A DNA stretch of 64,000 nt from an uncultured Planctomycetia bacterium (GTDB lineage: Bacteria > Omnitrophota > Gorgyraeia > Tantalellales > Tantalellaceae), in contig CAYPCX010000002.1 of the NCBI GenBank assembly GCA_964409365.1, positions 32,984-96,983 on the forward strand. The letters are read 5' to 3'. The number at the start of each line of letters is the position of its first letter. The first letter of the stretch is position 1. A model generated the notes under the pieces. That model did no database searches and had not been told where the DNA came from. It worked only from the letters and a program-made list of their open reading frames with translations. Position numbers and translations under genes: made by a program. Of this stretch, positions 3,001 through 33,000 are shown in pieces.

Positions 3001-6000
3001 AACCTTACGCCGGACACTGCCGGGACCAGTGAGCTGGAGGTCGAGATAGACGGCACGCCGTATGCCTACGGAGTGGTGGAACACGCGGACGGCAGTTTTA
3101 TATTCTATGATCGCGATACCTGCGCTTTCGTGGCGGAAGCCCTGGAAAAGTCGGTCACTCTTGAAGGCAAGGATTTCATCATTCTTACCAGCATCGCGGG
3201 CGGGTTCTCTATAGTGGAAGCCAAGGCGCAGGATATAAACCTTGACGGGACCGTGGATGGAAGGGACAAGGATATCATCCTTTCCAACCTCGGCCTGGAA
3301 GAGGTCGGCGAGCTTTACCGCGCCGATCTCAATAGCGACAATGTCATAGACAGGGAAGACCTCCTCGTGTTCAACGAGCTGGTCCCGGTAGTCGACCGGA
3401 TGCAGCTTGTGAACATGAACGGCGAGGATTTCTATGCCGAATATAATGAGGACGGTAGATTCACTGTGAAGGAGACGGATCTTTCCGAGACTTATACCAG
3501 TGACGAAGATGGTCTTGTCACGATTGGGACCCGGGAATATTTATTCATGACGGTGAGCGGCAGGATAACGGCCGGCGAGGTCTACAGGTGCGATGCCGAT
3601 GCCAACAATATCCTTAACAGCATGGATACGAATACTGTCACGTACGCTTTGGGGTCAGGTCATATCGAACCGGTGGTCATAGGCGAGTGGACGACAGAAT
3701 TTTCAGGGGAGTTCGCCTTTGATATAGACGCCAGTACCTCGGGTTATTACAACGTGGGGCTTGAAATAGCCGCCATGGAAGTGGAAGAAGGGGAAGAGGC
3801 GGAATTCATACCCATGGCCGTCAAGGCCACCCTGGTGCCTTCCGTCGGCGAGGAAAAACTCCTCGGGTATTTTGACGTTCTCCCGAGAGCGGACGCCTCC
3901 GCGCAGGGCAAACTAAGCATCGCGCAGGGCATGTTCACCACCGGCACACAGACGGTAAGGTTCGAATGGACCAATGCCGCGCATATGGACCCGGTGAAGA
4001 TCGAGAAGGTCTTCGTGGAGGATTCAAGATACGCTATAGGCGCGGATCTCAACCAGGACGGTTTCGTGAACGAGGTAGACCAGAGGATACTCCAGACAGA
4101 GAGAACCGCCTCATCCGGCGGGATAGTGGACCTCTATGATCCGACCGTGTCAGATCCCGGTCCGGACGATAAGAACGAATATACGGTGACGACGGATACG
4201 AGAACAGGATCAAGCGGGGATTATACTACCTATATATTCACTGAAGGCGTCTTTTCGACCGAGTCGGATGAGTACGGCCGGGTAACGCTCGGCGCCGGAA
4301 ATTACGAATTCCTCGTGATCGAAAAAGACGGGGAAGTTATCCTTACAAGGCAAACGAGGGAATTCCTCGCCGAGGAAGACGCGCTTGTCTTTGCCTGCGG
4401 GAAGGCCTATCTCTACGATGACGAGACCGGGGTGTTCACCGATGTCGAGACGCCCGGCGATACAAGAGAGGTCACTGACGGCATCGTCGAGCTGGGAGAC
4501 GCTCATATCAAGTATTACGTTATCGAGGAAGCCGGCCAGGTAGTACTCAAAGAGGTCCAGGATACCGGCGCCGTAACGGCGAATGATATCATCCGCATAG
4601 AGGACAGCACGGATTACTTTGAAGATGCCGGCAGTCTCACGATAGGCGGGACCTACACCACGCCGGGTTCGGTGGTCTATGACGTGAGCGAGACGGCGGA
4701 GGGCCAGATAGTGCTGTCGCTGCACGTCGACCGGCACGGGCCCGAAGAGGACAGGTACCTGTTGGTCGAAGGGGAGATCTATCTTGTAGAAGGGAGTGCC
4801 GGAGCATACACTATTACCGCTATTACAGGGGGCCCGGATCCGGTCGTGGATAATGATGCTTCCAAGGTCGCCATAGGCAGCGAAGAATATGACATAGAAA
4901 AACTGGACGCCCAGCGCATCAAACTGACAAGAAGGGTCGACGCGGCAAGGTCCATAGCAGGGCGCATTATAAAGGTGGGCGAGGCGTTGTACACGATAGC
5001 CGCGACCACCGGCGGGGAACATGACTTCGTGAACTTGATGAACAGCTCCGATTTCACCACGAGCGTCCAGCACGAGGTCATGCTCGGCGGGACGATCTAT
5101 CTCGTGGAAAAGGGCGCGGAAGGCGAGCTGGTACTCCGACGGAAGTTCGATTCCGCGGTCGAGGAGGAAGACGCGCGGCTTGTAAGATTCGAGGATCACA
5201 CCTACGAGATCCAGGGTGTTGAAGGAGATTATACGGCCGTTGCCATCCAGGGAGGCGCTTACACCGTCGAGGTGAACAATATCGACAACACCGTGACCTT
5301 TGAGGACGAGACGGAGACCCTCCATGAATTCAGGATAGTGAAGCTCGAGGGAGAAGAAAAACTGGCCCTGGTCGAGGTATCCGCCGAAGCCGCCTCAGAG
5401 GATGCGCGCCTGGTGGATATAGACGGCGAGTATTACCTCTTGGATGAGACGCTCCCCGGAGAGTACACCATATCGGCATACAGCCACGGGGCGCTTGAAC
5501 CCGCGGAAGAGAACGGCCTCTTCATAATAGGAGAAGGTTCCTATGCGACCAGTGTCGATGAGGGCAAGATCATTTTGATAGAAGTGCCGAATGAGGTGGA
5601 AAAGGATGCTGACGCTTTCGTCGTCATCGAGGGTGGTGTCTATACCACGGAAGTGGACGGAGGCGGGGATTTCTCGCTCACGTTCATCGCGGGCGTCGAT
5701 AAGTCACCTGTTATAGATAACGAATACAGCACGGTAACGATGGATTCCGGCGCCGGGAACGTATACAGGATATGGGAAGATCCGGTGACGCTCGAGATAA
5801 ACCTGGAACCATACGTGACATCGAGCACGCCCGAGGAAGAGGAAATAGTCGCCGCCAGTTACGGCGAAGGATATACCGCGCTTTACAAAGCCGAGTTCTC
5901 GACGAACGGCGACGTCCTGTCGTTCGCTCCGGTAATGACCACGGAGGCCACTACCGTCACGTCCGTGCCGGACCTTTCGGTGGAATTCGAGACCCAGATG

Positions 6001-9000
6001 GCAACGATGACGGTCGACGGCACGGAGATCCTGTACGAGATAACGGTGGACGGCGCCTCGGGAGCGGTCACCCTCTCCATGGAACCCGAAAGAAGCACTA
6101 CGACGTATAACCAGAGGATAGAACTGGAGGGCGTGGTCTACGATGTCATCAAGGAAGTCGACGGATACACCATGATCTCGGGAGACAACGTATACACGAC
6201 CGGTTCCTACACCGCGATCACCGTTCTCGGCAAGGATTACGACATATTCACCGATCCGGACACGGAAGATATACGCCTGAGTGAGAAACCGGAAGAAGCG
6301 AGTTCCCAAGTCGGCGAGGTAATGTCGAGCGAGATTACAATAGGAAGCGTCTATACCACTGATACCGACAGCATAACTATAGGGGAAGAGACGTTCACTG
6401 TCGCCCCGGTAAATTTTGGAGCGCTTTCGGCCGAACATACCACCCAGCTCACCCAGAGTATAGGGGATTACGGCTCCGGGCGGGTCAGGGTGGCACTGGA
6501 CAGTTTCGGCAATATTTTTGAATACCTGGACGAGGATCACGACGAGATGGGCCGCGGCCGCGAAACACTGGTCTATCATAAAGAAACGGATACCTATGTT
6601 ACCTACGCCTGGGACGCCGCCCAGGTAACGGTTGACGTGTATTCCGGGGAATACACGAATCAGGGCGAGGACCTCCTGGTGGACGTCACATTGACGGAGC
6701 GGAGGGCGACATACGTCTATGATGGCACATACACGACCAACCTCGACCCTGCCACGAACGGCTGGGTGATAAGGACAGCTGCCGCTTATTCAACGAACGG
6801 CGTGTATACCACACTGGCCCGTGAATATGACGGGACAGGACGTCTCGCGAAAGAGACCAGGCCCGACGAAGACAGGTATTATCTATATCAGTATCACGCT
6901 TCACCAAATGAGTCGGTCGTAAGCGTGATGGAAGAGTATGAGCTCAGCACGGATGAGCTGGTAAGAGAAGAGGAATACCTGACAACGGGTCGGATGACCA
7001 CCAGCACGGCGGGCGGGTTGACCGCGGGATACTATACCACCGGAGCTGGAGCGCTTATCAGGAAGGGTATTTATACCACCGGTGACGTCCGCGAATTCCT
7101 GGAAGAGGATTTTGAGACAAGCTCATCCGGCAGGACGGTCCTGGAATATGACGCCGAATACACTACTTACAGGACATATGAGTGGTCTGGCGATACGGTC
7201 AAGGTAGAGGTGTTCGCCGGGGAATATACCACCGGCCTGTGGGATGAGCTCTGGAACGACGTCGACGAGGCCGAACGTATGACCACGTACATATATGAAC
7301 ACAACAGTAACCAGACGGATACGGACTTGGATACCAACGGCTGGGTCATAGTGAAAGAGGTCGTTTATGACGCCGACGGCAGCACCGTAATGGAATCAAA
7401 GACATTTGACGCGGAAGGGCGCCTTGCCAGGGAAGAGGAAATAGCCGGGGCCCTTTACACGACCTATTCGTATCACCCGACCGGCGGTTACACCACGAGC
7501 AAGAGGGAATACGACAGCGAAACAGGGTTCATCAACAAGTTCTTCCAGTATGACGACCAGGGCCAGATGATCGGTGACTACACGTCCCTGGCCCAGGCGG
7601 ATTACACCAATTACGCGGGATCCGGCAGGCTCATGAGGAGAGTAGTGGATTATGGGGCCATATACGAGTATTACGACGAGGACCATGATGAACTCGGGTT
7701 CGGCAGGGTGATGATCGCGTTCGATCCGGATACGGACACGTACAGGAAGTACAGCTGGAGCACGGACCTTGTCGTGGTGGACGTATACAGCGGGGAATAC
7801 ACCGTTCAGCCGGGAGACGCCGCGGGAGCGGGTATCGTCCTGTCCGAGCGCGTCGCCACATACACCTATTACCATGACCAGGAGAATATCAACCTCGATC
7901 CGGACTCCAATGGCTGGACATTGAAGAGCGCGACGGAATACCAGGCCGGCGGCGTGAGCCTCCAGGCGAAACAGGTCTATGACGCCGAAGGCAGGCTGAC
8001 AGGTCGCGAAGACCTTGCCGCGGGCAAAAAGTACAGCTACGAATATCATACCGAAAGCACGGGCCTGGGGCACACGATCTCGTCCATTAAAGAAAGGTAT
8101 ATTGTTACCGATATCCTTACCGACACGTTCGAGTATAGCGCCTCCGGTAAACTGACGATCCATACGGAAGCCGGTACGGGTGAAGTGGCCGAATATCATC
8201 CGGGATCGGGATTCCTCAAGAGAGAGACTTCGGACGGCAAGGTCTTTGAGTATCTCGAGGAAGATCACGACTCTCAGGGTTACGGGAGGGTGACACTTGT
8301 CTATGATATTGCCGGCGAGACCTATTCCACCTATGACTGGGACGCTGAAACGGTGACGGTAACGGTTTATACGGGCGTATATACGGTCGAAGCGGGAGAC
8401 GGATCGAGGGCCGGCGTGGTAGGATCGCAGAAGGCCGAGCAAAAAGTGTTCGACCACAACGGAGAAATGGTAGACCTTAACGTCCTGAGCAACGGGTGGG
8501 AGCTTGAGGAGAAGACGGCAGAGAACGAGAACGGCTACGCGGTAACTTATTTCTATGACGCGGAAGGAAGGATCGCGAAGAAAGAGATGCTGGACCTCGC
8601 CAGCGGCGCGTATTCCACATACGTCTATCTGTATCACGGATCTCCCGATGAGGTAATGGTGGACTCGGAATACGAGTTCACGTCCATGGAACCGCCGGTC
8701 CTGGAATGTGTCCGCGAATACAGTAACGAAAGAACGTTCATCTTCACCAATGATTCAACGGGTGAGGCGTACACGAGCACGTTCGATAATATGCTTAACA
8801 TAGAGGGCATGCTGTATGACCTGGCGTTCGATGCCGCCAGCGGCATGCTCGAGGTCCGGGAGAAGGGTATCGAGGTCAACGACAGGACATATGAATATGT
8901 TTTTAACGGCGATGACGAGACCTACGTATTCACCGATATCGAAGAAGGCACTTCATACGTGAGCACTGTCTTTACGACCGCGGCCGATTGTTTCGTGAAC

Positions 9001-12000
9001 CTGGCGGACAGCCTTTTCATCATAGAAAGAAATGAAGACATGACGATAGGCCTCAGGGAAAGGACGGTGTCACTGGGTGCGGCTGATTATAATATTTCAC
9101 GGAAAGCCAACGGCGATTACGTTTTCGAGGACAGGGTGGACGGGACGAGGTATACAAGCATCGACGTGGACGGCACGGTGGTCGTCGTGATCGGAGGGAC
9201 CATGTTCGAGGTGCTGACCGATGAGGAAGGCGCCGTGAGCATCAGGCAGCTCCCCAAGGCTGATATAAACGCGGACGGGCTTGTGAACGAAGACGACAGC
9301 GCCGCGCTTTCCGAGATCATTGCGCTGCAGGAGATGATAGATAAGGCCGACATGAGCGGGGACGAGGAAGTGGATTTCGAGGACTGGTCAAGGCTTAATA
9401 CGGTCATAGATGTTTACGAGAACCAGGACGAGATGCTCGAGATCGACCTGGCCAATAAAGAGCTCCTGCAGGACATGGCCAATTATGCCTATAACTCTTA
9501 CCTGCAGAACAAGGCCCTCGAGTTCGATTACAGGGTGAACGAGAGTGACACCAGCTGGCTTAAACAGGTCTATCCGCTGCACGGGGGCGATTTCACCACG
9601 ACCTATCTGGACTACGTGAATAACGGTTATATAGAAGCGCAGGATGTCCAGGACTTCCAGGAAGCCCTGAACTCGCTTGACGTGCTGTTCGATTTCACGC
9701 AGGACGGCGTAACGGACGAAGAGGATATCCAGTGGCTCGAGCTCCTCCTCGAGCTGAAAGATGAGTTTTACGCCTATGAAGCCAAGAACAGCGTTACGAA
9801 CGCCGCCATGTTCCTGCAGAACGCCATGGACGCGGCGGACATAAACAGTGACGGCAGGGTAGATGAAAAAGACCAGGCCATAATACTTAACAGTTACGAT
9901 AATTATCTCCAGAACGACCTTTCCGGTGACGGCGTGGTGAACACGACGGATGTGGACCTGGTCCGCGCGCTGTACGAGACCATATGGCCGGGCGCGTATG
10001 ACGAGAGCGCGCCGCTTATGTGGCCGGATTCGACCTCGCGCAGCGGGGAATCGGTCCTCGCGCGCAGGATCTACGCGTCGAGCTGCCAGATGGACGGTTT
10101 CACCGGGTCCGTGGACAGGAAAGCGGCCCAGGCAGATACGGAAGGCGCTTCGTTAACGTATACGTTCGAGCTGGAAGATACCGATGATTATTTCGTGGGG
10201 CTCTCGGCGAGGAACATAGAGGGCCAGGCCCTGGACGAAGATTTCAGGTATCTGGTCTGGATATACGTTGATGACGTATTTATCGAATCGCTTCTCGTGG
10301 ACTCCTCATCCGACAGGTACGCGGAGAATTCGGTATCCATACCTTTTACCAAAGGCACGCACGAAGTGAAGTTCGTCTTCAAGAACACCTCGGGTATAAG
10401 GCCGGTAGAGGCAAGGGACATTTACGTGAACCGTTCCGGCTTCCAGCTTACCAATTTCGATACCGACCGTGACGGGGAGATAACCGAGCATGACGCGGAG
10501 ACGCTCGAAGCGCTCATTGATACCTATGACATCAGCGGTGATGATGTCGTGGACGATATCGATGTGGATTATGTCAGGGGGCTTGAAGGCAAGACCGATC
10601 TGGACGCAGGGTTCGACGACAGGGTGGATTTCAATAACGATAATGTCATAGACGCGAAAGATACCGCGATCATGGAAGAGGTCATAGACGAGAACGATAC
10701 CAGCAATGATGGCAAGCTCGGCAACAACCTCGACCCGCAGTTCAACGACGTGGACAGGATCCGCGACATAGCCCTTTACTATATGACGGAGAAAGCGTAC
10801 GAGAAGATCTCGGGCAAGTATCTCCTGGACTTCAACGGTGACAGCGAGATAGACCTTCAGGATGCCGATTATTACGTGGACGCGCTGAGCGTCCTGGACC
10901 TCACCGGCGACGGTTACATAACCGACGCGGACAGCGTCATGCTGGGCAAGATAATCACCATGTTCGAGTATGATATCTCCGAGGACGAAGTGGAAAGGGC
11001 CGACATCACCGGCGAGATCACCTTCACCGTCACCGATGGGACAAGCCGGACGGCGATAAACCGCGGCGATGACCTGGTAATAGACGGTATCGATTTCATG
11101 AGCCTGTTCGACGCGGATGAACGCACAGTGGATATTATCGAGACGTTCGACGAAAGCCGGATAACCGACGGTACGGCTGTGAGCCTTAACGGCGAGATCT
11201 ATCTCATCATGGAGGACGAACAGACCGGTCTATTTACGGTAACCGATGGCGAGAAAGAGTACGTCGCGGACGAAGAAGGAGAATTTGAGATAGGGATGCG
11301 CACGTACGTTGTAGGAAGAGACCCGGCAACGCAGGTCGCTTACATCGCGCTTAAAGAGATACGCAGCATACCGGTGGGCAAATACGCGATCGAAGTGGAA
11401 GGCAAAGAATACGTGGTCTCGGCGGACAGCAAACAGGGCGAGTTCATCTTCGATGACGGCCTCAGGCAGTACGCCTCGAATCCCGCGACGGGCAAGGTAA
11501 GGCTGAACGGCCTGTTGTACTCGATAACAGAGGATGAAGAAAATGATACTATTACGCTGGCCAGGGAAGATATTGCCGGCGTTATCAACGGAGGCGTGTG
11601 CGCCGTGGACGGCCAGGAATATCTCTACAGTTTTGATACTACCACTAACGCGCACGTATTCACGGCGGAGGACGGACGCCTGTTCAGAAGCGAAACGGGC
11701 AGCGATGTAGTCCTCCTGGACGGCGTGGCGTTCGAAGTGAACGGGGCGAAGACGGCCCTGACCGAACTCTTTTCCACCGGGAAGATCGCCGACGGCGCCG
11801 TGAAGGTCGGCGCCATAGAATACCTGATCGTCAAGAACGCCGACAATACCTATACCGTAACGGACGGCGCGAAGACTTTTCTGAGCGACGCGCCCGGCGA
11901 AGAAGTAGTGATAGAGGGGTACGCGTATATCATCCTGGAAGACGCCGGGACGGGCCAGATATCGCTCGAGGCGAAAGGCAAAGAGAGCACCGCGCTCGCG

Positions 12001-15000
12001 GACGAGGTAATAGAGGTAGTGGAAGAATACCAGGGCATCAGGACCAGGGGAACGCAGTACAGCGTGACTAGAAATGCACAAGGCCGGTACGAGTTCTCCT
12101 GCGCTTCCAGGACGTATACGAGCTTCAACGAAAGTGGAACGGAGTATATAGACCTGAAAGAGTACCGCTACGTGGTCACTGAGGATGCTTCGGGAGACGT
12201 CCAGCTCGAGTATATCAAGCCCACCCTTGACGGGACTCCGGTAGCTACTTCACTCGAAATGGTCGCCAAGAAGGTAGCCGACGAACTTATCGCCATTGAC
12301 GGAACGGAATACATGATAAAGGTGACCGGTACGAGCGGCGGTTACACGACATACGCGGTCACCAGGGGAGACTGGAGCGGCGAGTTCACCACCACAGCGG
12401 TAATAAACGGAATAAATTATAATATCCAGGAGACCGACGGGAGTATCAAGCTTGTCCTTGAGGCCCCCGAAGTGGACCCGGCATACCTGGCGCTCGAGGT
12501 GCTCAAGCTCGAGAATGGGACCACCTGTTACGTGACGTACGACGGCGCCTACAGCGCACTGGACGCGCCGGACGGGATGCCGCTGGATATGAGCGGATAC
12601 ACGGCAGCGGCCCTTTCCGACGGGAGCGCGAGGGTCCTTTATGTCAAGGATAAGATAGCGGCGGGATATACCACCGAGAGTTCCGCCAACAGCGTAGTCT
12701 CTGTGGGAGGAAGAATATTCGACATATTTACGGACGCCGATGAAAGTATAGACCTCCTGTTGAATGGATGCACCTATGCGGAAGGCATGGGCGTCTATTC
12801 GACCGTCGAGATAGACGGCATCGAGTACGAACTTGTCGAGGGTGCCGAGGGCGAGCTCGCGCTTGTTTCCGTTACGATGAGCTCTTATGATCTCGGCGCG
12901 CAGTGTATCCTGCTTGGAGGAGACCTGTACGCCGTTACGAGGGACGCCGGGACGGGAAATTTCACGGTAGATAACGGTATCGATTCTTACATCAGCCACA
13001 GGCTTAAAGTTCTCGCGGCCAGCGGCGAGCTGGACGGCGAGCCCACGTATTCCGGCGCGGCGCGTACGAACCTGATCAATATCTCCGGCAACACGTACGC
13101 GGTGGAAAGATATCCCGATTCGGACCTCTTCGCGCTCGAGGAGCTCCACCTTGAAAGCGAGCTCATCTTCAGCTCCGGCCAGGTAAAGGTTGACGAGATA
13201 GCTTACCGCGTAAGTTACGACTTTAACAGGGATATCTACACGTTCGAGAACGCGTCGACCGGCGAGGTCTTTGAAAGCGATGACCTGCGCAGGACCGTAA
13301 GGCTTGAGGGAAACGCGCTGTATGACATCTACGTCCACCCGGTCTCAAAAGTTATCACGCTTACGAAGGTGCATACCGCCGAGGCCAGCCCGGACACGCC
13401 GATAGAGGTGAACGGTAAGACTTACATGGTGAGGAAACGCGGCGCCCAAACGTGTAACTTCATCTACATGCCGGACGGCGAGAACGAGGACACCAGTACG
13501 GTCTATTACAGCTACATAATGTTCGGGGAGCACCTTGTGGATATAGACGGCAGGACATATGAAGTGACCGTTACCACCGACGAGACCGAGGGCGAGACCG
13601 TGCGGCTCGACGAAAGGGACGAATATGATTCTTCCCCGATAGTCGCCGGTCAGGGCTCTGTCGAGATAGACGGCAAGGACTATGACGTGGAACTCCTGGC
13701 CCAGGGCGGCTATACGACTTACAAGTTCACTTACGATGACGGGATACATGATCTGAAGGTCTGGTACAGTGACGCCAGATCCGAGGAGGATAGCTGGGCG
13801 CTCCTCCGCATAGATACGGTCCGGTACGAAGTGAGAGAGATAGAGGAAGGCGGGGTCCTCAAGATCAACCTCACCAGGAGCTTCTCCAGCGCGCCGGACG
13901 AGCCGCCGATAAGATTGAGCGGGACGCTTTACAACGTGACCTACGATTACCTCACCGGAAGATACGTGTTCGATAACGGGTATGATCTCTACCAGAGCTC
14001 CGATGAGAGGGACGAGGTGGAGATAGGAGAGACGAGTTACACGATCGCCAGGGATCCCGAGACGAATTCCCTGAAGCTTTCCGAGGTTGATCCGCAGGAT
14101 GTGGAGTTCACCTCCTCCTACACGAGAAGCATGGTCACATTGAAGGACGGCATTACCTATTCCATCCTCCGGACAAGCGACGGTAAGATCAAACTTTCGA
14201 CCACCGGCGCCAGTTACGCAGAGGATACCCAAGGCCGCGTGCAGGTCGAAAACGACCTTTACATGATAAGCGATACCGCGGGCGGGGAGCTCCTTTTCAG
14301 CAGGATCACGGAGAGCGAGACGGTCGAAGGCATGCTCCTGGAGCTCGGGAATTCGTATATTGCCGTCAGGTCGGACGACAACGAGGAAGTGGACGAGGCG
14401 GACATTACCGCCCTCGAAGAAGCCTACCAGAGTTTCAATGCGCTGGATTACAACGGCGACGGCATCCTGGATAAGAGCGACATCGACGCGATGATAAGGG
14501 AGCTCGAGGAAAAACATGCCGAAGTTGCCGATCTTGAGGAGAAAGCGGAGGAAGTGGATGACGTGTACAGGCGCATATATTCTTCGCCGGTATACCGGGA
14601 AGATATTCTCCAGGCCGTGGATTTCGACGGTGACGGATATCCGGACGAGGATGACAGGCTTACCTATGAAGACACGATAGAGAAGTTCAACCTGATGGAC
14701 CTGAACGCGCTTGAAAGGCCGGAAATGGAGGTCATGGAAACGGACACCGAAACGACCATTTACGGCAAAGATTATGATGTAAGCTATGACGGTGTGGAAG
14801 AGAAGTTCATCCTCGAGCGCAAAGATGGCGGCTACAGCACCGAGGTCTCGAACGGCGACAGCGTAGTGTTCGAAGAAACGCAGATAAGCTACACGGCCGC
14901 AGTAGGTGACTATACCACAGATGAGGGGACCATAAAGAGACTTATCCTTACCAGGGATACCGCTTTTGTGGCCGCGGGATATACTACCTCCAGTCCGGCG

Positions 15001-21000: not shown

Positions 21001-24000
21001 GATTACCTCGGCCTCCAGACGATGGAAGGGAACGTGGCAAGTTCGTTCGACGCCAAACTCGAGCTCCTGACCAAGGTCCTCAAAGAGGAGATCTTTACCC
21101 CGGACGTGGCAATGGCCACGCGGCAGGAACTCCTCGAGGAAATGGTGGAGAAACTCGGCATAGTGCCGGAGAGGGCGCCCAATTACGCGGGTGTCTCGCT
21201 TGAGGATTCACAAAAGTCCTGGCTAGAGGGAGAACTGGGCGAGCTTTTCAGCTTCGGCCAGCTCGACAAGAACTCGGACGGAAAGATAACCCAGGCGGAA
21301 CTCCTCCAGACCCTTGCCGGTATATTCGACTTCGAACAGCTGGACGCCGACGGCGACGGCGTGACGACCCAGAGCGAGATCGACGACATGGCGCAGGTCA
21401 TACGCGATATCCTGGAGACGAGCACTCTCTCGAGCGCCGACCTGGAAAGCGCCGATATAAACGAGGACGGCGTGGTGAACGGTTTTGACCGGGATCTCCT
21501 GGAAACGGTGATAGAACACAGCTTCGACGTCAACCAGGATACCGTGATCGATGAGGATGACATGAAGGACTGGCTGAGGATCTACGATTATATGGGGTAC
21601 AGCCTGGAGGAGGACGAAGAGGCCGGTATATGGCATCTCGTCGATCTGGAGAACGCGGACATAGACGGAGACGGTCTCATAGAAGGCGGATGGTATCTTG
21701 ACGAGGTCGCGGCGTGTGAAGAGAACCCGGCGGGATATGAGTTCGCCGAATGGGACCAGGACCGTTATCCCGAGGCCTGGTCGGACAGGACGGCGTATCT
21801 GGATAACATGCTCGAGGTCCAGGACCACCTGAACGTCCTTGACTTCGACCTTGACGGCGTGTTTGACCAGTCCGACGTGAGGGCGGTAACGGACCTCATG
21901 CTGTTCATCGAGAACAGCACCATAGAACGGGATATGGAGAACCGGAACGTCGCGGACCTCCCCAACGATTATGACCTCCTGAACGAGAGCTTTCTCGGCA
22001 GGGACGGCGTGGTCAACGATATCGATATCGCCACGTTCCTGGAGGTCACCGACCCGGCCAGGCACGCCGACGTCAACAGGAGCGGCCAGGTGACCGACAG
22101 GGATGTCAACCGCATAAGGGAGATCATGGATTTCGATTCTATCAGGGACGAGTGGGAGGACTGGAACGCCTCGTACACGGAAGAGGACCCCTACTGGATA
22201 AACACGAACCTCACCGACAGGATCATACACGTGGAAAACAGGCATTTCAGGATAACGTATGAAGCGATCTCGGGCATATATATCTTTGAACCTTTCTATG
22301 TCCTGGAAAGCGAAGTGCCGGATGAACCTGAGGACAACATTCTCAGCGACCCGGAGGCCGGCACGGTAACGATAATGGGCAAGGACCTGGAGGGCAACTA
22401 CACCGAAGAATACGTGTATAGCATCGAGGTCGATCCGGAGACCGGAAAGCTCACCCTGATCAGAGGGACAAGGGAAGCCGCGGAACAGAGCGCGCTCCGC
22501 GCTTACATGGAGAGAGCCGATCTTACCGGCGACGGCAAGGTGAACTATTTTGACAAGAACGTTCTCCAGGACGTGAGGGATAAAGCCGCCTCCGCCGGTA
22601 TTACGCAGATGGACCAGCAGATGCTGGACACGGTAAAAGAGGTATTCGCCCTGGTGAACGCCTGGACGGTCACGCTGGAGAAAGAAAAATGGGTGAGCGA
22701 GAACGTATATGACCAGGTGATCACCATGGAGGGCAAGAAGCTGGGGATCGAGATAGTGACCGGGGACAATACCACCAGCTATGTCTTCTATGATATAGAC
22801 GGCGGCAACAGGGCCTACCAGGCCGATATGGACGAGATGACGGTGCATATAGGCAGCGTGGTCTACCTTATCATACCCAACGAGGCGACCGGCGATATCC
22901 AGCTCAGAAAGCTCTACATCAACAGCTATGAAGTCGGTGACTGCGCGATCACCGTGGAAGGAAGGGACTTTGTCGTCACTAAAGACGAGACGAGCGGGAT
23001 ATACGAGTTCAGGGAGGGCACCAGGATATATGAGAGTCAGCACATAGAAGAGAAGGATTACGTGATAATAAACGGCGCGCCGTGGGAGATAGTGGAGACC
23101 GGTTCGGGCGAGGTCAGCCTCTTCAAGAAAGCGGAACAGGCTACCAGCACGCCCGTTTCCGAGGACCTGCAGGTGATCGTCCTTTACAGCAACCTTTATA
23201 CGACGAATAAAGTATACACGGTCGACGATTCCGATCCCGACATGCTGGTCTTCTCGAACGCCGAAGCGACCTACGTGACGCTTAAAGGCGAAGATACCGT
23301 GGTCATCGAAGGCACGCTCTACGATGTGGATTACGATGCCGCCACGGGCGAGGTCACCCTTACCGAGGTGCTTTTCGGCGACTTCGACGGCGACTATTCA
23401 GTGACGGCCGAAGAACAAGCCATGCTCAGCTCAGCCATAGGCGCGTACACGACCGGCGTGCTCGAAGCCGGCGGCGCGGCGTCCCTGTACGTGGATATAT
23501 ACGGCGTCCGTTACGACATCATCGTCGAAGAGGACGGGTCCATAACGCTTGCCGAACGCATTATCCGGTCCAGCTTCGTCGACACGATAAAGGTCGGCAC
23601 GACCACCTACAAGGTCACCACAGAGACCCTGACGGAATCCGAAGAAGGCGACAGGTTCGACCACGACGTGCTCGTGTTCACCGAAGTATCCCTGGTGGAG
23701 ACCGAATTCTCCTCGCGGACGGGAAGCTATACGACATACGTGATACAAGAAGGAGGCTATACCACCAGCGACTACGACATGGAAGAGGTGACCATCGGCG
23801 GTCAGACTTACGGGATAAGATGGCTTGCCGAAGGCGGCATAGAACTTTTCGATACCGGCACCGAGGATGCCGTAAGTTCCGCCGGTGATTTCCTGATATT
23901 GGAACTTACCTCTACGACGGATGAAAATGACGCTTTTGCCACCAGCCGCTGGCTGGGAGACGGAAAACTGGATATCAGCGGCCTGTACCCGTCGGATACG

Positions 24001-27000
24001 CGTTTCGGCATGTCGACGATCCTTGCCAGCAAGGACGGCGATACTTACGTCTTCGCCCTGAACGCGGAACTGGACGAAGCGGCGCTCGAGGATATCCGGG
24101 TGGAAGGCGGATATTCCGATACGGGCACCTGGGATGACATCAAGCAGGTGCTCATGGACGAGTTCAAGCGCACTACCTATTATTACAGCGATACCAGGAC
24201 GGACACGGTAGAGATCGGCGGGATATTGTACGATATAGACGAGATAGGGGAAGAGATAAGGCTTACCGCCAGGGAAGTGATCGCCGGTGAGGCGGGTACG
24301 GGAAGTATTGAGCTTGCCTGCGTGGAAGAAGCGGGAGAGTACGTTTTCTACGGGCCCGTAGGAGTTAGCGGAAGCGCCCAGACCATCCGGCAGGATGAGG
24401 ACGGGACAGTGGTGTTCGGCAATTACCAGCGCTACCAGGTCAACGAGATACCCATGGGCGCTTATACCACGGTCACGCTCAGCCAGCTTTCCAGGACGGC
24501 AGGGGTGACCGCGCCCAAGGAGATAATAGAGGTATACGGCGTCAATTACAAGGTCACGGATAACGGCGACGGAACTTATACTTTCACGGACGGCACTTAT
24601 CTTTACACCAGTGACGCCACGACCCAGACGGTGAGACTGGGCGAGATGCTTTTGACGACAGCGGAACGATATGAAAGCGGCATGACGGAGGAAGAGCTCG
24701 AGGACGTCAGGGGAGTGCTGTATGACATATCCTTTGACGCGGAGAGTAATATAGTCCTTACCAAGCACGCCGAGGAGATAGGCGCCGCGCAGGTGTTCGA
24801 GGTCGCGGGAGAGATCTTCGCCGTTACCACCGATTACAAGGGCGACAAGACGATAATGACGTACCCGGCCGGTGTCGTCGTGGCTGAACTCGCGCTGGAG
24901 GAAGACATCCTGGCCCTCGGTGACAGGACGTACGATGTTACCAGGGACGCGGGCGGCAAGATCAGCCTCCAGTGGAATACCATACAGTCCGTGGATATCG
25001 AACTCGTCAAGGTTGCCGGCGTGAGATATTGCGTGAAAGAGACGGCCGATCCCGAACACCTCTACGAGTTCGATTACATGGGAGAGGTAACGGCCAGTTA
25101 TTCGACGGCCGAAGGCCATAAAGTGGACCTGGGCAGCGGGGCGAACATCCTTACTTACGACATTTTTATCGACCAGGAGAGCGGCCGCCTGCGTCTTATA
25201 GAGGATTACATGGAAGGGACCACGGCGACCGGCGCTTTTATCACCTTTGACGGAAAGACGGATCCTTATGATGTGGGAATAACCGGGACCACCATAACCA
25301 TTACTGACGGCGAGAATACCGTAGTGATCGAAAAAGCATCTGCCGATTTTACGAATCTGGTCATAACGCTGGTAGTGGATGACAGCGGTACGGAGGAAAG
25401 GGACTATTACGTTATCTACGATCCGGGCGACGAAGAAGTGGAAGAGAGCATATCGCTGAGCGCTTATACCACGACGGGAACGAACGACTTCCTGGCCTCC
25501 GGGATGAAACAGATCGTGAACCTGGGCGGCATATGGTACAGCATAGTGGAAGAAGACGACGGGTCATACAGTTTCGCGTGGACAGGGTCCGATGATGTCG
25601 ACCATGTGCAGAACGCTTTTCTCGATGATGGCGAAGTGACCCTTGACGAAAACGTTATCTTCACGCTCGAGGCGGATTACACGACCGGAGCCCTTACCCT
25701 TACCCAGAGGGATTATCTGACCAGCCGCGATGTATCGCTCTACCCGGTCGAAGGCGTCCTCGCGAGCAGGATAGTCGAGATAGGCGGTGTCGAGTACGTG
25801 CTTGAATACGAGGTCAAGCAGGAATGGTCGGATGACATCAGGGACCCGGCGAGCGACGTATACGAATATTCGGCGCCGTACGGTTTCACGTACCGCAGTG
25901 GAGCCGCCACTACTTCGGGATACATCACCGTGCCGTATTTCACCCTGACGAGCGTCGAAGACGGCGTGACCTACGAGAACAGGGTGGTCACGACGGGATA
26001 TGCCCCGACGCCCGTTTCGGAAGAGTCAATTCCATACGTGGATTCATCGAGGGAAGAAAGCCGCTTCATAATAGACCTTCCGGAGATGTCCATCGGGCTT
26101 GAAGGTTATCCGGAACTTTACGCGCCGGCGCTTGAGGTGGTCGACACCCAGACAGGCGAAAAGAAGCTGTTCTATATATCCGAGAGGTCCAGGGAGGAGG
26201 GCGTCAATTCTTATTACCTGTATTCCGACGGCGAGTATTACGCCTTCAATGCGTACGGCGACGATCAGGAAGAGAACGCCGATCTTCTGACCGTGATAGA
26301 CCTTAACGGGACCGATATCGAGATAGAGATCAATGACGCGGTGGACCCGGACGGGGCGGTGGAGGGCGCGCACGGGTATATCAGCCAGACATGGTCATCC
26401 GCCACCAGGGCGCGCCATTTTCCGGAACCCCTTACCATCGATGTGGACGGCGACGGCGAGTATGATGAAGGGGACGGAGATGAGTTCACCGACATGAACG
26501 GCAACGGCGTATGGGACGAGTATGATATGTATGGCGGCCGTTACACCGTTAACTTTATCGATAAAGTTCCGCTCAATGTCGTGACCGGCCGCCAGGCGGA
26601 GCTGGTCGAGTGCCAGGTGGACTGGGAGAACGACGAGCTTGTCTATGCCGGCGGCGAACATCAGGTCCGGCAGGAGATCGAGATCGACGGCCTCAGGTAT
26701 TACGTGTATCCGGAGGGCGATACCCTGAAGATCGACGCGCTGCACCTCGAGAGCGTGGCCGTGGAAGGTAACCGCCAGGCGCTCATACTGGGCACGAAGG
26801 AATACGGGACCGAGATCGACGTGGACAGCGCTTACGGCCTGAACTACGCCGCGTCGGAAGAAGATGACGGCAGCGTGGTCTTCACCGACGGTTTCAACTC
26901 ATACACCAGCGATCCGCTGACCGGGACCGTCGATATCCTCGGGAGGACATTCCGGGTGATACAGGACGGGACCCCGGATATGCCAGGATGGACGTGCCGC

Positions 27001-30000
27001 CTTGTAGAGGCCCACCCGGTAAGCCTGAAGGCGGGTACGGGCGTTATCAAGGTCGTCCAGACCGACAAGGAATACACCGTAACACGCCTTTCCGACGGCA
27101 CCTACGAGCTTGAGGACGGCGATACGGGGACGAAATACACCAGCTACAAGAGCGTGGAAGTGGACGAAAGGATCTTCAGGATAACCGAGAGCGCCGAAGG
27201 CGTTATAACCCTTGAAGAAGAGAAAGAGGCGAGGCCGCCGCTCAACGCGGTGGAGATAATAGGCACGATCGTCGGTATCGCTGCCAGGGACAGCAGCGCT
27301 TCGAGCGCGGCGGACAGTTTCGCCAATTCCCTCATCAACATGTTCACCGACCTCTATGATGCCGATATATATTCCTGCATGGAAGAGGATCTTTACGGTG
27401 TCACGGACGAGGCGAGGGACATGGTCCTCAGGATAAGGTTCGACGGCGAGTACGTGATGGCGGTCTTTGACGGCACATACGGCAAGGCGGAGTTCGAGGA
27501 AAGGGTGAAAACGGAGGTAAGTGCGAAGTTCAACTTCGACAAGGCGCTCCTGGACGATCCCGGCGAGACAGAATACACCGTGGAATGGCTGAACATAACG
27601 GACGTGGAAGCGGACTTTGACGATCTCGCCGAACCGAAGCCGGCTTCTTTCATATGGCCCAACACCGAGGCGGCGTGGCTCGCGGCGAGGGCCGAGAAAT
27701 GGGAAGAAGTGGACGGCATAGATTACTCCGATCTGGGCGACGGAGCGGTATATATACTTGGAAGCGAGCCTGTTACCGGGATCGAAGACGTGTATACGGG
27801 ATTGAGAGTGGTCCGCGGCGATGAGTACGGCCTGTATGAGACGGAATACGTCCACAACCAGAGCGACGGGTATTCCAACGAGTGGATCAAGGAATTCGAC
27901 GCCCTGGTAAGGAGCACGCGGTACACGCTGCCCGATTACAGTGACGCGTTCGGCTACGACGTTTCGGAACGCATTTACGCTTACGTGAACGAACTGGAAA
28001 AAGCGTTCGAACCGGTCTCCAGCGGGGAAGACCGCGACTATATCGATGACGGGGATCTTGCCGCGGCCGAAAGGGTCATTTCTTCCTACAGGCCGGACGG
28101 TTTCCGTATCGCCGGCAAGGATTTCGACCTGGTACAGGACGAGACGGGCCAGTACCAGCTTATCGAGAAGCATACGTTCTCCAGCCATGTCGAGCGCGGC
28201 GAGGACTTCCTGGGCAGCGAGGACGAGAACATCGTGACAAAGCTGGAGTTCGAGGACCAGTATTCCGTGCCGCATGAGATCTATTATTTCACGCCGGCGT
28301 TCGAAGAGGACCAGACCAATATTATCAATGGCATCATCATGACCTACGGTATAAACCCGGGAGACATCACGACCACGCATTATACCCTTACCTATTTAAG
28401 GACCGGCAGCGGCGCCGAACATACCGAGCTGGTCGGGGATATACAGTACCTGGACGGAGGGGAGATCCTTGGCGAGAAGTTCGTCGTGGACGGTAAGAGG
28501 CACGATATCGAGGAAGACGCCAACGGTGTGATAGAAGTGGCATATGACGTTTCCGCGGAAGATATCATAGTCAGGATAGAGTTCACCACCGAGAGCGGCG
28601 ACCAGGAAGTGTTCGGCATATTCGACGGCACCTTCGATAAGGACGCGTATATCGAATACCTTAAGGCCGGGATAGCGGCCGAGTACACGGTGACCGGGGT
28701 CTTCACGACCACGACATACAGCCTCAAGGACCTGAGGGAGGCCTTCATAGCGAACGAGGACGGGGATCTGGTGACAGCCCTGGGATACGATAACTACGGC
28801 CTGGACGGCGAGACCTTCAAGATCGGCCAGGACAGGTACAGGGTGTTCGCTAATTCCTGCAACGCCGATAAAGAGGACATCCTGATCATTCGTGAGAAAT
28901 ACAACGAGACCACCGAAGGATATGATTCATTCGACTACAGCGTATCTACGGCCGCCGACAACATCCTGAAGATATCCGGGACGATGTACACCGCCGTGCA
29001 TACGACCGATCCGTTGCACCCGCAGCCCGGCCACGAGGAATGGGAGACGTATTATTACGAGATCTACGATGAAGAAGGGGTCATGGCGGCCTGGACCGAA
29101 CCCGTCGAGGTCGAAACGGACGTATGGGAGTGGCGTCTCACCATGCACGGCAAGACGTATGACGTCGAAATAGATGAGGCGAGGGACGGTATCATCCTGA
29201 GCGAGCGGACCAAGACGAGCGAGCCGGTCGTGGTGGACCTTTACGAGAGCACTTACGGCGGCGATGATGACGATACGGATGACGTGGAGATAAAGAGTTT
29301 TTGCGGCTTAAAGGCGGAAATGATGATGGTCGGGTTCACGCCGTCGCCGGGAGAGAATCCGGGAGCCTTCTGGTGGTTCGTGGAGGTGGAGCGCAAGTAC
29401 GAGATCACCGAACAGGGCGAGACTGAACCCAGGTACGGCAAGGTAGTAACACAGGATTCCGGAGACCTCGCGGGCCATGGCGTTATCCCGGAATACCTTA
29501 ACACCGTCAAGATCAAGGTCGGCGCGAACAAGTACGTCCCGCATGATATCTTTATCGAGGACCTTGGTGACGGCGAGCCGGGCAGGTTCTACGTGGCTTA
29601 CGATACGGCCTATACAACCGAGATAAACGATCCGGAAGCAGCAACATACATGACCGTTGAATTCACCGAGGATATGACGGTGACCATAGACGGAGCCAGG
29701 TACAAGGGCATCAAGCATTATGATGTGGCAGGGGATCTGGTGAGCGTTTCCCTGAGCAGGATCACCGAAGAGATCACCGTCCATGACGGCCTTCAGGTCG
29801 AAGGCCAGTATCTCTTCCAGGGACATATCGACGGAACTTACAGGGTAGACGTGGGCTCCGGGCAAGAGGTCGTGGACACGAGAGATTTCGGATTGAGCTA
29901 TCACCCCGAGGTTTATGAGACCGACCCCGCCGCCAACACTGTTGTTCTGGACGATGGCAAGGTATACGAGGTAGCGATAGATCCCGCGGATCCCTCCCAG

Positions 30001-33000
30001 GCGAAGCTCATCCATACCAATATCAATAGCTACGCCGCGCCTTCGGTGATACTGGGCGATGTGTTCTATATCATCGAAGGTCCCGACGGGAACGGCCATT
30101 ACACGGTCCGGGAGGCGTTCAAGGAGGCGCCCGAAAAACAAGTCAGTTACACCTACACGACAGATACGGAATGCGTGGAGATAGGCGAGGCCCTCTTCAA
30201 GGTAAGCGAAGAGACGGCGCCCTCGACGGGCAGGGAATGGTTCGTCCTTGAGAAGATGGAAGTTACAACCTTCCTGAAGGACGAGGACCAGATGATCGTG
30301 GGCCTTGAGGGGGACAGGTTCTATACCGTCCAGGCCGTGGGGAGCGTGCACGCCTTCCAGAACCTCTACGGCGAAGAGGGTACCGAACTTTATTATTCCG
30401 CGATGGAAGCTGAAAAAGAGATCGTGTACTTCGCCGCCGGAGAGATGTTCGAAGTGGCCGAGGACAGCCAGACCGGCAGGCTCCAGCTTATTCCGGTATA
30501 TATCGAGCATTCTTTCAAGGGAGAAAAAGCGATAATAAACGACCGGTATTACACCGTTACGAAGGAGACCCAGGGGTCTGCCGAAAGGTACACGTTCGAT
30601 GACGGTGTTACCCAGACCAGTTCCGACTGGGCCGAGCTGGACGTTTCCAATATCTACCGTTCGGTTATGGAGCTGGACGCCGTTACATATGATATGGTCG
30701 TCGAAGCCGACGGGACGATCAACCTCTCCGGCAGGACCACGGAAGCGTCCGGTGCTTACATCATAGAGGTGAACGGCGCGCAGTACGTGGTCAGCGAGGC
30801 ACAAAGTGCCGACGGGTATAAGGCATGCAGGCTTTTTGACGGGACCACCTGGTATACCGCCGACCCGCCGACTAGCACCATCAGGCTGGCCGACGACGTG
30901 CTGTACAGGGTGACCAGGGACCCGGAGACGGAAGAAGTGATTTTAAGCGACGCTTACGTGGAAAGCCATGACGTCCAGGCGGTCGAGATAAACGGGAAGA
31001 TATACCTGGCATACGAATCTTTTGACGACGACAGCCACGCTTACAAGTTCTATGACGGCTACGGCGCCTACGCCAGCGCGCGCGACACGTTCGGTTTCTA
31101 CCGTGACGGCGAGAGCCTCTTCAGTAATTACGCGTTCTACGAAGAAGTGGACAGGGACAACTTCGAGGAATACGAGAAAGAGGACATCTTCGGCGGCCAG
31201 GACAAGTTCAGCCATAACGAGATAAATTACCGCATCGATATCCCGAGCGCGGGCGTGTATGACATAGGGCTTTTTGCCAGGACGTATAACAGCACGCTGG
31301 CGCCTACGCTGAACGGCCTGGACATGGGTTATGAGTTCACGGTCAAGGTCGACGGCGTAGAGAAAGGATCGTTCCTGGTTAGGGCCACTTCCGAAACCCT
31401 TACCATGGGAAGTATGCCCGTCTATCTCGGCGAGGGAGAACACGACCTGAATATGGTCTGGAATATTCCCGAGTGGTACGCTTCCGCGGACGTCAAGGGA
31501 GACCTGACCCTCGAGGTAAAGGACATATTCGTATCGGAAGGGGAACTGGACGTCTATGACCTGGACGGTGACCTGGACGTTGACGATGACGATCTGGCCA
31601 TACTGGTCACCAACATAGGAAGTACCGCGAAGACAAGCGACGACAGGGAAGAGAAGGCGTTCGAACTTAAAGGTAAATATTATTACTATTATTATAGCGC
31701 GCCCGGTGACGAATACATCATCTCCGACGGGGAGGCCTTATACGCGGTATATACGACCGCCGGAGGCAATATGGTAGACCTGGACAGCGGCCAGTTCAAG
31801 GTGACCGTTAACGAAGCGGAAGGGACGCTGGAACTCGAAGAGGGCACTGCATACACCATCTCCCAGGCGGACCAGGTCATAGAGTGTAACGGCGTCCAGT
31901 ACCTTGTGTTCTGGGAGGGCAGCGACGTAAAGCTCAAGTGGGACGGCGGCGACCAGACCTATGGGTCAACATCCGGCCCGCCGTGGATCGAAATAATACT
32001 GGACGGGATCCCCTATACGTTCAAGACCAACCAGACGGACAAAAAGGTCGAGCTTGAAGAGATCATCATAGAGGCCATGCCGGTATACGAGGAATATATG
32101 GTGGAAGTGGCCAACAAGATATACGTGGTCGCCTTTGACGGGAATACCATGAGGTTTATAGATGCCAACGGCACGGTAACGCCGACCGACCTGGACGAGG
32201 TGACCGCGCCTGATGGGACGGTATCCAAGGTGGGAGAAGTGTTCCTGGCGGGCATGTTCTACAGCATAACGGTCACAGGGGACGACCAGATCGCGCTCGC
32301 CGAGCTCGGCGTGCCGGTCAAGTCCGAACCGGCCCAATCGACCCGCAGGATAACCCTGGGAGACGAGTACATGGTCCTCGATAACGGCGACGGCACTTAT
32401 ACCTTCGGCAAGCTTGCCGATACCGAAGTGTTCACATCCTCTTACACCACGGGCATGGTCGAGATCGTCGAGGGCGAACACACCACTACATATTATGTCT
32501 TTGAAAACCCGGCAGACGGGACCATAGCGCTCTTTAGAGATCCTCTCATGCACAGCATCGACCAGGGGCAGGAAGGCACGATAAGCGTCGTGTTCGATTC
32601 CTACGAAGCGTTCTACGATATAGATCAGTGGGACGCGGGCGGCGGCGATATGAGATACCGCTTCACGGATATAACCGACGGCGAAAAGGTATGGGTGGAG
32701 GACGCCGACGGCACCGTAACTATCGAGGGGATAACTTACGGCATAGTCCTCGAGGGAAGCCGGATGATACTCGAGCAGAAACCCATAACCAGCGACCCGT
32801 TCGAATACAGGATAGTCTACGCGATAGGACTGAGGAATTATGACGCCGCCACCACCGACATTATCGCGGACGATTTCAACTATGCCGCGTTTGACGCTTC
32901 GAGATGGGAAACCTTTGTTTCCATACCCGAATGGTCGATGGAAGAGAAATATTATGTTGACGATATAGTTTCCAAGGATGGTGTCGATTATATCTGTACG

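Follow-up and report, generated by a model that had tools for sequence, protein, structure and literature searches.

A recurrent double-hairpin unit in a fragment of a giant Omnitrophota protein

The window and its reading frame

No predicted proteins known are longer than those of Omnitrophota, which are unannotated over most of their length. We analysed a stretch of 64,000 nucleotides (nt) from an uncultured bacterium of this phylum (contig CAYPCX010000002.1, positions 32,984 to 96,983; hereafter the window), with a focus on a recurrent, predicted β-hairpin unit in the protein that it encodes. Frame +1 runs through 63,999 nt of the window with zero stop codons, giving 21,333 codons that are open at both ends. 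This frame, its colinear orthologues and its domains identify the window as a piece of a Candidatus Omnitrophota Dockerin-type giant protein gene. An initial annotation, made from the DNA letters and a program-made list of open reading frames, had described a degenerate hairpin repeat of about 24 residues and missed that a single gene, from a class already described, takes up the entire window. The reading frames in that list are all antisense to the giant frame, and the stop-free stretches of the opposite strand, up to 979 codons long, are shadows of it.

The encoded polypeptide (the window protein) is very acidic, with 10.8% Asp and 9.5% Glu as compared to 2.8% Lys and 3.5% Arg (D+E 20.3%, K+R 6.3%). 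A Pfam scan locates at least ten Dockerin_1 sites, for example at amino acids (aa) 3087-3133 and aa 6252-6307, together with EF-hand pairs, three sites of 3keto-disac_hyd (DUF1080), two ILEI domains and at least 11 Laminin_G_3 domains, most of them beyond aa 11,600. Matches to CBM_5_12 (aa 10977-11014, below the cut-off) and to a GH59-type lectin domain are weak. Calcium loops of the form D-x-[DN]-x-[DN]-G-x-[IVL] occur 45 times against an expectation of 0.9 and are densest at aa 4800-7300. The acidity and the calcium loops suggest heavy calcium binding or a saline habitat.

The class was described by West-Roberts et al. (2023; bioRxiv 10.1101/2023.11.21.568195) as Omnitrophota 'Dockerin-type giant proteins' with dockerin, EF-hand, TSP3, DUF1080 and lectin-like domains. 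According to this preprint, a locus resembling type II secretion adjoins such genes. The window agrees with it in its Omnitrophota orthologues, in its dockerin, EF-hand, DUF1080 and lectin-like modules and in its 45 calcium loops. TSP3 (PF18884) has no Pfam match in the window, though the preprint calls this domain typical; a looser TSP3-like motif, D-x-D-x-D-G-x-x-D, is found 12 times in the window protein. A length of 30,000 aa or more is ascribed to the class, and the window protein, open at both ends, has at least 21,333 aa.

Definition of the repeat unit

A profile seeded from one apparent 70-aa unit and iterated on the window protein first converged on a 49-aa core with 71 copies. After N-terminal extension it describes a 58-aa unit with the consensus VEVDGKEYTVTEDADGTYTFTDGDEGEVYTSDEGTGTVEIGGVTYDITEDAEGEITLT, present in 78 copies at a domain E value below 0.01. 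The unit is a visible internal duplication (VEVDGKEYTVTEDADGTYTF versus VEIGGVTYDITEDAEGEITL), whose halves follow the patterns V-x-V-x-G-x-x-Y-x-V-x-x-D-x-x-G-x-Y-x-F and V-x-I-x-G-x-x-Y-x-I-x-x-D-x-x-G-x-I-x-L; the motif of the initial annotation corresponds to one half. Each half is a three-stranded motif of ~21 aa, and the loop that joins them carries a short Y-T-S strand, which brings the unit to seven strands. Tyr is the sole nearly invariant residue; Trp is not conserved. The N-terminal half is present in 54 of the 78 units and the C-terminal half in 65, a total of 119 hairpin motifs. Units follow one another at a median spacing of 73 aa and hairpins at ~35 aa, and segmentation of aa 3701-4766 by hand gives units of 66-101 aa.

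The motif, its tracts and its enrichment were rightly noticed in the initial annotation, while its period and counts need correction. The two peptides given there as examples, VEIDGIEYELVEGAEGELALVSV (aa 4269-4291, nt 12805-12873) and VVIEGTLYDVDYDAATGEVTLTEV (aa 7767-7790, nt 23299-23370), are encoded in frame +1, and the large share of the protein assigned to the repeat is borne out, with units covering 19% and the arrays that hold them ~28% of the window protein. The proposed period of about 24 residues gives way to a 58-aa double hairpin with a ~73-aa period: BLOSUM autocorrelation of the tracts has no peak at 24 residues and only weak peaks at 35/36/70 and at 61-76. A clean period is missing from the autocorrelation because linker lengths vary, and profiles were therefore adopted. 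Copies had been put at hundreds, as opposed to the 78 units and 119 hairpin halves counted here. The pentapeptide G-x-Y-T-T, for which more than 35 copies had been claimed, occurs 31 times (0.8 expected), or 38 times as G-x-Y-[ST]-[ST]. As a signature of the repeat it is not specific: 15 of the 31 copies lie inside units, at the G-x-Y-T-F or Y-T-S positions, and six lie in a YD-like region described below.

In a protein of such skewed composition, rich in D, E, G, T, V and Y, and with units only ~22% identical to one another, the motif might be thought a by-product of composition with no true repeat behind it. Controls that keep the composition refute this explanation, to which we assign practically no weight. 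The 58-aa profile, with its 78 matches in the window protein, finds 0-1 in reversed and locally shuffled (60-aa window) versions of it, and a strict core motif has 52 matches where shuffles have 2.0 +/- 1.3. For the half unit, a 21-column hidden Markov model yielded only nine domains and its iteration broke; the ungapped 21-column weight matrix used instead gives 56 matches against ~1 in shuffles. The same profile also recovers the units in non-acidic orthologues, such as P0001 (E 2.7e-106).

The units are laid out in four long arrays (7-15 units), smaller groups and ten singletons, one of which is a half unit (Table 1). Short groups and singletons sit among dockerin, CBM-like, LamG and DUF1080 modules. 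The tracts listed in the initial annotation enclose 54 of the 78 units; the other 24 lie outside, for example at nt 217-3567, 8734-9237, 26842-27216, 37516-41532 and 63643-63915. Its tract 28381-31110 does contain a seven-unit array, and no unit is detected there before nt 28969.

Table 1 Positions of the giant frame, the repeat units and the modelled segment in the window
Feature	Position (nt)	Residues (aa)	Strand	Remarks
Stop-free reading frame	1-63999		+	Internal fragment of Omnitrophota Dockerin-type giant protein gene (frame, colinear orthologues, domains)
Single unit	217-393	73-131	+	Profile; directly after CBM-like module and dockerin loop
Single unit	1897-2085	633-695	+	Profile
Group, 3 units	2671-3567	891-1189	+	Profile; between dockerin-type modules; absent from initial annotation
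Array, 11 units	4171-6405	1391-2135	+	Initially annotated as 4201-6480; best unit E 1.7e-11
Group, 3 units	8734-9237	2912-3079	+	Profile; directly before dockerin aa 3087-3133; absent from initial annotation
Array, 15 units, most regular	11179-14349	3727-4783	+	Holds best unit, nt 11389-11559, E 1.7e-17
AlphaFold2-modelled segment, ~8 units	11347-13140	3783-4380	+	All-beta model
2 units	14884-15204	4962-5068	+	Profile
Array, 13 units	22225-25812	7409-8604	+	Profile; initially annotated as 22681-26040
2 units	26842-27216	8948-9072	+	Profile
Array, 7 units	28969-31080	9657-10360	+	Profile; inside initially annotated tract 28381-31110
Group, 4 units	31663-32757	10555-10919	+	Profile
Group, 3 units	33640-34653	11214-11551	+	Profile
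Single unit	36442-36627	12148-12209	+	Profile
Single unit	37516-37680	12506-12560	+	Profile
Single unit	39076-39255	13026-13085	+	Profile
Single unit	40024-40188	13342-13396	+	Profile
Half unit, C-terminal hairpin only	41452-41532	13818-13844	+	Profile
3 units	43507-44010	14503-14670	+	Profile
Single unit	44548-44733	14850-14911	+	Profile
Single unit	46774-46947	15592-15649	+	Profile
Single unit	47566-47721	15856-15907	+	Profile
2 overlapping units, window end	63643-63915	21215-21305	+	Profile

Age and distribution

Paralogous units share a mean identity of 22% (maximum 40%), and Tandem Repeats Finder detects in the window DNA two short arrays of ~2 copies with periods of 27 and 21 nt and none at the ~220-nt period of the unit. 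With so little identity between paralogues and no repeat at the DNA level, the arrays must therefore be ancient. In local BLAST, orthologues run colinear with particular parts of the window protein at 43-52% identity (P0006, 52% over 4,758 aa; P0021 and P0038, 48%; P0005, 47%; P0016, 45%). Each unit is held in place across species in these orthologues, which indicates that the arrays are old and under selection. Together with the controls, these comparisons establish at the level of sequence that the repeat is real and ancient.

Within the most regular array, the stretch at aa 4000-4024 (window 11998-12072) reads A-D-E-V-I-E-V-V-E-E-Y-Q-G-I-R-T-R-G-x-Q-Y and is almost invariant in close orthologues. 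It is recognisable in distant orthologues such as P0001, P0011, P0020 and P0054, with a conservation far above its surroundings, and it stands in place of the usual first strands of a unit.

When 1.84 billion representative proteins were scanned with the unit profile in HMMER, 108 passed E<=1e-3; of these, 46 reached <=1e-10 and 14 reached <=1e-30, and lengths of 2,000-7,800 aa are frequent. An alignment of the unit across the family comprises about 730 units. Twenty high-ranking matches were looked up: 17 are 'partial' proteins from metagenome-assembled genomes (MAGs) of Candidatus Omnitrophota and three carry no taxon name. Nearly all of the 20 fill a whole contig, and the named ones are annotated as hypothetical, dockerin or LamG proteins. 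A search of GTDB genomes with a three-row alignment gave two loci in Omnitrophota MAGs (L001 and L002), both long open frames. In L002 (JADGBR010000015.1), the long frame passes at 3578-3717 from frame 0 into frame 1, the two overlapping by ~140 nt; the cause is either a frameshift of the assembly or a boundary between genes within the giant gene.

Weaker matches in Oscillospiraceae, in Magnetobacterium and in the SpaA-rich ENA metagenome protein P0086 were rejected as members; they are single-hairpin cross-matches to MucBP, BACON and SpaA, respectively. Outside named Omnitrophota, a few metagenome fragments and one Microgenomates-binned fragment look genuine. Profile and alignment searches thus place bona fide members of the repeat almost only in giant proteins of Omnitrophota. 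A word-indexed protein search with two tracts (aa 3661-4780 and aa 7561-8680) and the unit alignment returned no match, though the 43-52% orthologues are in the same collection; with a composition of this kind, its prefilter of 8,000 candidates is apparently saturated. Single proteins scanned against plasmids and against contigs from genomes, metagenomes and viruses likewise had no match.

Comparison with known repeat families

The repeat is absent from Pfam and NCBIfam as far as profile scans can detect: at E<=10 the four repeat tracts have no meaningful match, and no family recurs among 40 units scanned one by one. The initial description of the repeat as unclassified is therefore sound. It had also been set apart from YD/Rhs, choline-binding and Listeria-Bacteroides repeats, and at the sequence level this separation stands. 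RHS_repeat (PF05593), YD_repeat_2x (TIGR01643) and CW_binding_1 (PF01473) are not matched at E<=10 in the four tracts or in the 40 single units, and the Listeria-Bacteroides repeat (PF09479 Flg_new) is absent from all Pfam scans of the window and of single units. Alignment of the unit profile with hhalign gives probabilities of 0.1% for Escherichia coli RhsA and 0.13% for Cpl-1, the choline-binding lysin of phage Cp-1.

A profile search of all PDB sequences produced only sub-threshold matches (E 0.003-0.08): a designed protein, fragments of TcdA/cell-wall-binding repeats (4nbx, 4nby, 2g7c; E 0.005-0.08) and the dextransucrase 3tto, aligned over V-x-I-D-G-x-x-Y-Y-F hairpins. These matches raise the question of whether the units are carbohydrate- or cell-wall-binding repeats akin to choline-binding and CROP hairpins, in which case the conserved Tyr residues of adjacent hairpins would make up numerous glycan sites of low affinity, through which the protein would adhere multivalently to prey. 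Both kinds of repeat have G-x-x-Y-x-hydrophobic hairpin strands in tandem arrays of surface proteins, one Tyr of the unit is nearly invariant, TcdB appears among the structural matches described below, and the neighbouring modules are lectin-like (LamG, DUF1080, CBM_5_12 and the GH59 lectin domain). We nevertheless consider a binding repeat of this kind unlikely. Besides the PDB matches falling below significance and the lack of any CW_binding_1 match, the period is 35/73 aa instead of ~20 aa, and the units have neither the G-W nor the paired aromatics of CW_binding_1, Trp not being conserved. The conserved Tyr residues, moreover, fall within the alternating apolar pattern that is expected of buried core residues.

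The YD/Rhs family (PF05593, TIGR01643; Rhs effectors, TcB/TcC, teneurins) resembles the repeat in its degenerate hairpins of ~20 residues, in which a Tyr, an acidic position and the Gly of the turn are conserved. Very large surface or secreted proteins harbour both, with long antiparallel sheets that are predicted in the case of our repeat. The turn of our unit is two to three residues longer, Y-x-V-x-x-D-x-x-G as compared to Y-x-Y-D-x-x-G-R-L, and the 58-aa double units with their ~73-aa period have no sequence homology to the family. The Y-D-x-x-G-R-L signature has five matches in the 21,333 aa, four of which (aa 2276, 2469, 2660 and 2852) lie outside units.

These four positions belong to a different repeat at aa 2137-2912 (window 6409-8736), made up of four modules of ~192 aa that each carry a Y/F-D-x-x-G-R-[LI] motif and an E-Y-L-D-E-D-H-D-E-x-G-x-G-R stretch. 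RHS_repeat (E 0.4) and TIGR01643 (E 0.48) match the region below threshold, and it may be a degenerate YD/Rhs-like region within the same protein.

Predicted structure

Two AlphaFold2 models were computed. The longer one covers aa 3783-4380 (598 aa) and used a 13-row alignment of orthologous segments; it has a mean predicted local distance difference test score (pLDDT) of 81.5, a predicted template modelling score (pTM) of 0.68, 61 strands and no helix. Over its first two-thirds, pLDDT stays at 81-94 across unit boundaries, and the linkers too are predicted as strands. A three-unit model from 38 alignment rows has seven strands in each unit and reaches pLDDT 86 and pTM 0.55; its pLDDT falls to 76 and 54 at the unit boundaries. 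The unit is thus confidently predicted to be all-beta, in line with the hairpin nature proposed in the initial annotation. The β-roll suggested there as one possible form is excluded, as the predicted strands are antiparallel hairpins and the RTX GG.G.D motif (PF00353) occurs 0 times in the window against 1.4 expected. The interpretation put forward at the outset is accordingly retained in part: an unclassified, distinct β-hairpin repeat, with the 24-residue unit, the β-roll and the specificity of G-x-Y-T-T given up.

The boundary dips of the short model would be expected if the units were independent small β domains, strung like beads into a flexible tether without higher-order structure. Many units do stand singly among other modules, covariation between units is without signal (see below), and in Foldseek no solved superstructure superposes well. 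The pTM of 0.68 over 598 residues and the high pLDDT over the boundaries of the long model argue instead for defined packing between units, as do linkers predicted as strands, and where the short model dips, the linker columns of its alignment, which is rich in paralogues, are poorly aligned. We regard a bead-like tether as distinctly unlikely.

In a Foldseek search against the PDB, the first matches of the long model are a teneurin-like protein (9ifo, E 1.7e-8), Rhs cores of type VI secretion systems and teneurins (up to E 3e-5), accompanied by TcdB; the list continues into β-propellers. The template modelling (TM) scores of these matches are 0.07-0.13. The three-unit model has no match below E 1e-3; OspA (3aum, E 6e-3, TM 0.17) and RhsA come first, with TM <=0.19. 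A search of BFVD gave no match. β-Propellers, with DDB1 and BT4663 among the Foldseek matches, were rejected as a description of the arrays at TM <=0.13. OspA and the three-unit model are both elongated antiparallel meanders, although the match is not significant and the single-layer central sheet of OspA is polar on both faces and non-repetitive, whereas each strand of our unit would have an apolar face.

The ranking of the long model leads to the proposal that the arrays are highly diverged YD/Rhs repeats that enclose a cargo or toxin in a shell, like those of Rhs effectors, Tc toxins and teneurins. The YD-like region at aa 2276-2852 of the same protein, with its sub-threshold family matches, is consistent with this, and the 2023 preprint compares its β-helix to Rhs. 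The superpositions themselves speak against the proposal, since TM is ~0.1 and the root-mean-square deviation from Rhs shells exceeds 30 A, and the units have neither family matches at E<=10 nor the YDxxGRL signature. In addition, the arrays are broken up by dockerin and lectin modules in place of one shell of 700-1000 aa. The protease motif of the Rhs core end (DPxG[LW] or PxxxxDPxGL) is not found in the window, beyond which the gene has its true C-terminus. A diverged Rhs shell is in our view very unlikely. With TM scores of only 0.07-0.19, the likeness of the arrays to Rhs shells is therefore local and grades into generic β-propeller matches.

Discussion

We favour, with a probability of roughly 60%, a reading in which the window encodes a fragment of a giant acidic surface protein whose double-hairpin units are arranged in arrays that act as rigid scaffolds. 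The alternation of apolar and polar residues would give each strand one apolar face. With an apolar face on every strand, the hairpins are expected to pack into a continuous, rigid, multi-layer antiparallel β structure, and the sequence pattern would suit such layered packing rather than a single exposed sheet. The arrays would then serve as stiff scaffolds or stalk segments that space and present calcium-dependent dockerin and lectin-like binding modules, and through these modules a small cell, probably a predator or an episymbiont, might be attached to its partner. The β-solenoid spacer named in the initial annotation is a putative form of the arrays, for which the nearest solved structures, YD/Rhs and teneurin shells, are neighbours by local structural alphabet only.

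Several observations weigh against the packing proposed here. Mean-field direct coupling analysis (DCA) of 421 units yielded apparent hairpin registers and a shared core, but column-shuffled controls scored equally, and the covariation analysis was therefore discarded. Between neighbouring units, DCA scores were at noise level. The packing of units is taken from the AlphaFold models, and AlphaFold can over-predict regular β structure in repeats. The low Foldseek TM scores of both models (0.07-0.19) also count on this side.

The preprint that described the Dockerin-type class also reports AlphaFold-predicted 'antiparallel beta-helix' tubules of ~1,500 aa in one giant protein (CAILPI010000004_73, Fig. 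5B) and compares them to Rhs repeats (10.1101/2023.11.21.568195). Its protein and ours share the phylum, dockerin, EF-hand, DUF1080 and lectin-like modules and a length above 20,000 aa, and both have unannotated, predicted all-beta stretches of ~1,000-1,500 aa built of antiparallel hairpins and described as Rhs-like but novel. The arrays are probably the sequence basis of these β-helix regions. The preprint defines no motif or unit for them and reports neither residue ranges nor a distribution of the family, so their identity with the unit is inferred. A hollow tubule is reported there; the arrays here are described by their sequence and by model scores. A second preprint, from 2026 (10.64898/2026.06.07.730766), lists a class with dockerins and defers the prediction of structure for the unannotated part. 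Neither preprint defines a sequence repeat.

By analogy with the reported tubules, the units could be the building block of a long, hollow, single-chain antiparallel β-helix without a solved counterpart, which might, in predation, be a conduit or a piercing stalk and not a passive spacer. We put this forward tentatively, as a somewhat unlikely extension of the rigid scaffolds favoured above.

Hairpin-repeat arrays in giant surface proteins are already known, the protein class is described in preprints and a novel β-helix was reported in 2023; what is new is the sequence-level unit. For one recurring piece of unannotated sequence there is now a consensus, a profile and a copy number, along with a distribution (~100 among 1.84 billion representative proteins). 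With this definition the region can be searched for and could be put forward as a new family, and 3-8-unit fragments lend themselves to expression and structural work. Should the arrays adopt the predicted tubular form, they would be a new β architecture and offer a way into the question of how these very small cells hold on to their partners or attack them; as stiff spacers and nothing more, they would make for a helpful but unsurprising annotation.

Other regions of the window protein

The C-terminal half of the window protein (aa 11600-20500, window 34800-61500) differs in composition of modules, with LamG, ILEI and DUF1080 domains, the weak GH59-type lectin match and few repeat units; the weak CBM_5_12 match lies just upstream. 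Long stretches are without any annotation, for example aa 16600-18300.

The window opens with the end of a β-sandwich, CBM-like module (aa 1-60, window 1-180; ...HTVEVAWDNRHLL...LYVRD), which is followed by a dockerin-type calcium loop and then by a repeat unit. The same order of module, loop and unit is found in the orthologues P0019, P0012, P0032 and P0001, and it resembles the CBM35-like/dockerin 'ladder' also described in the 2023 preprint (10.1101/2023.11.21.568195).

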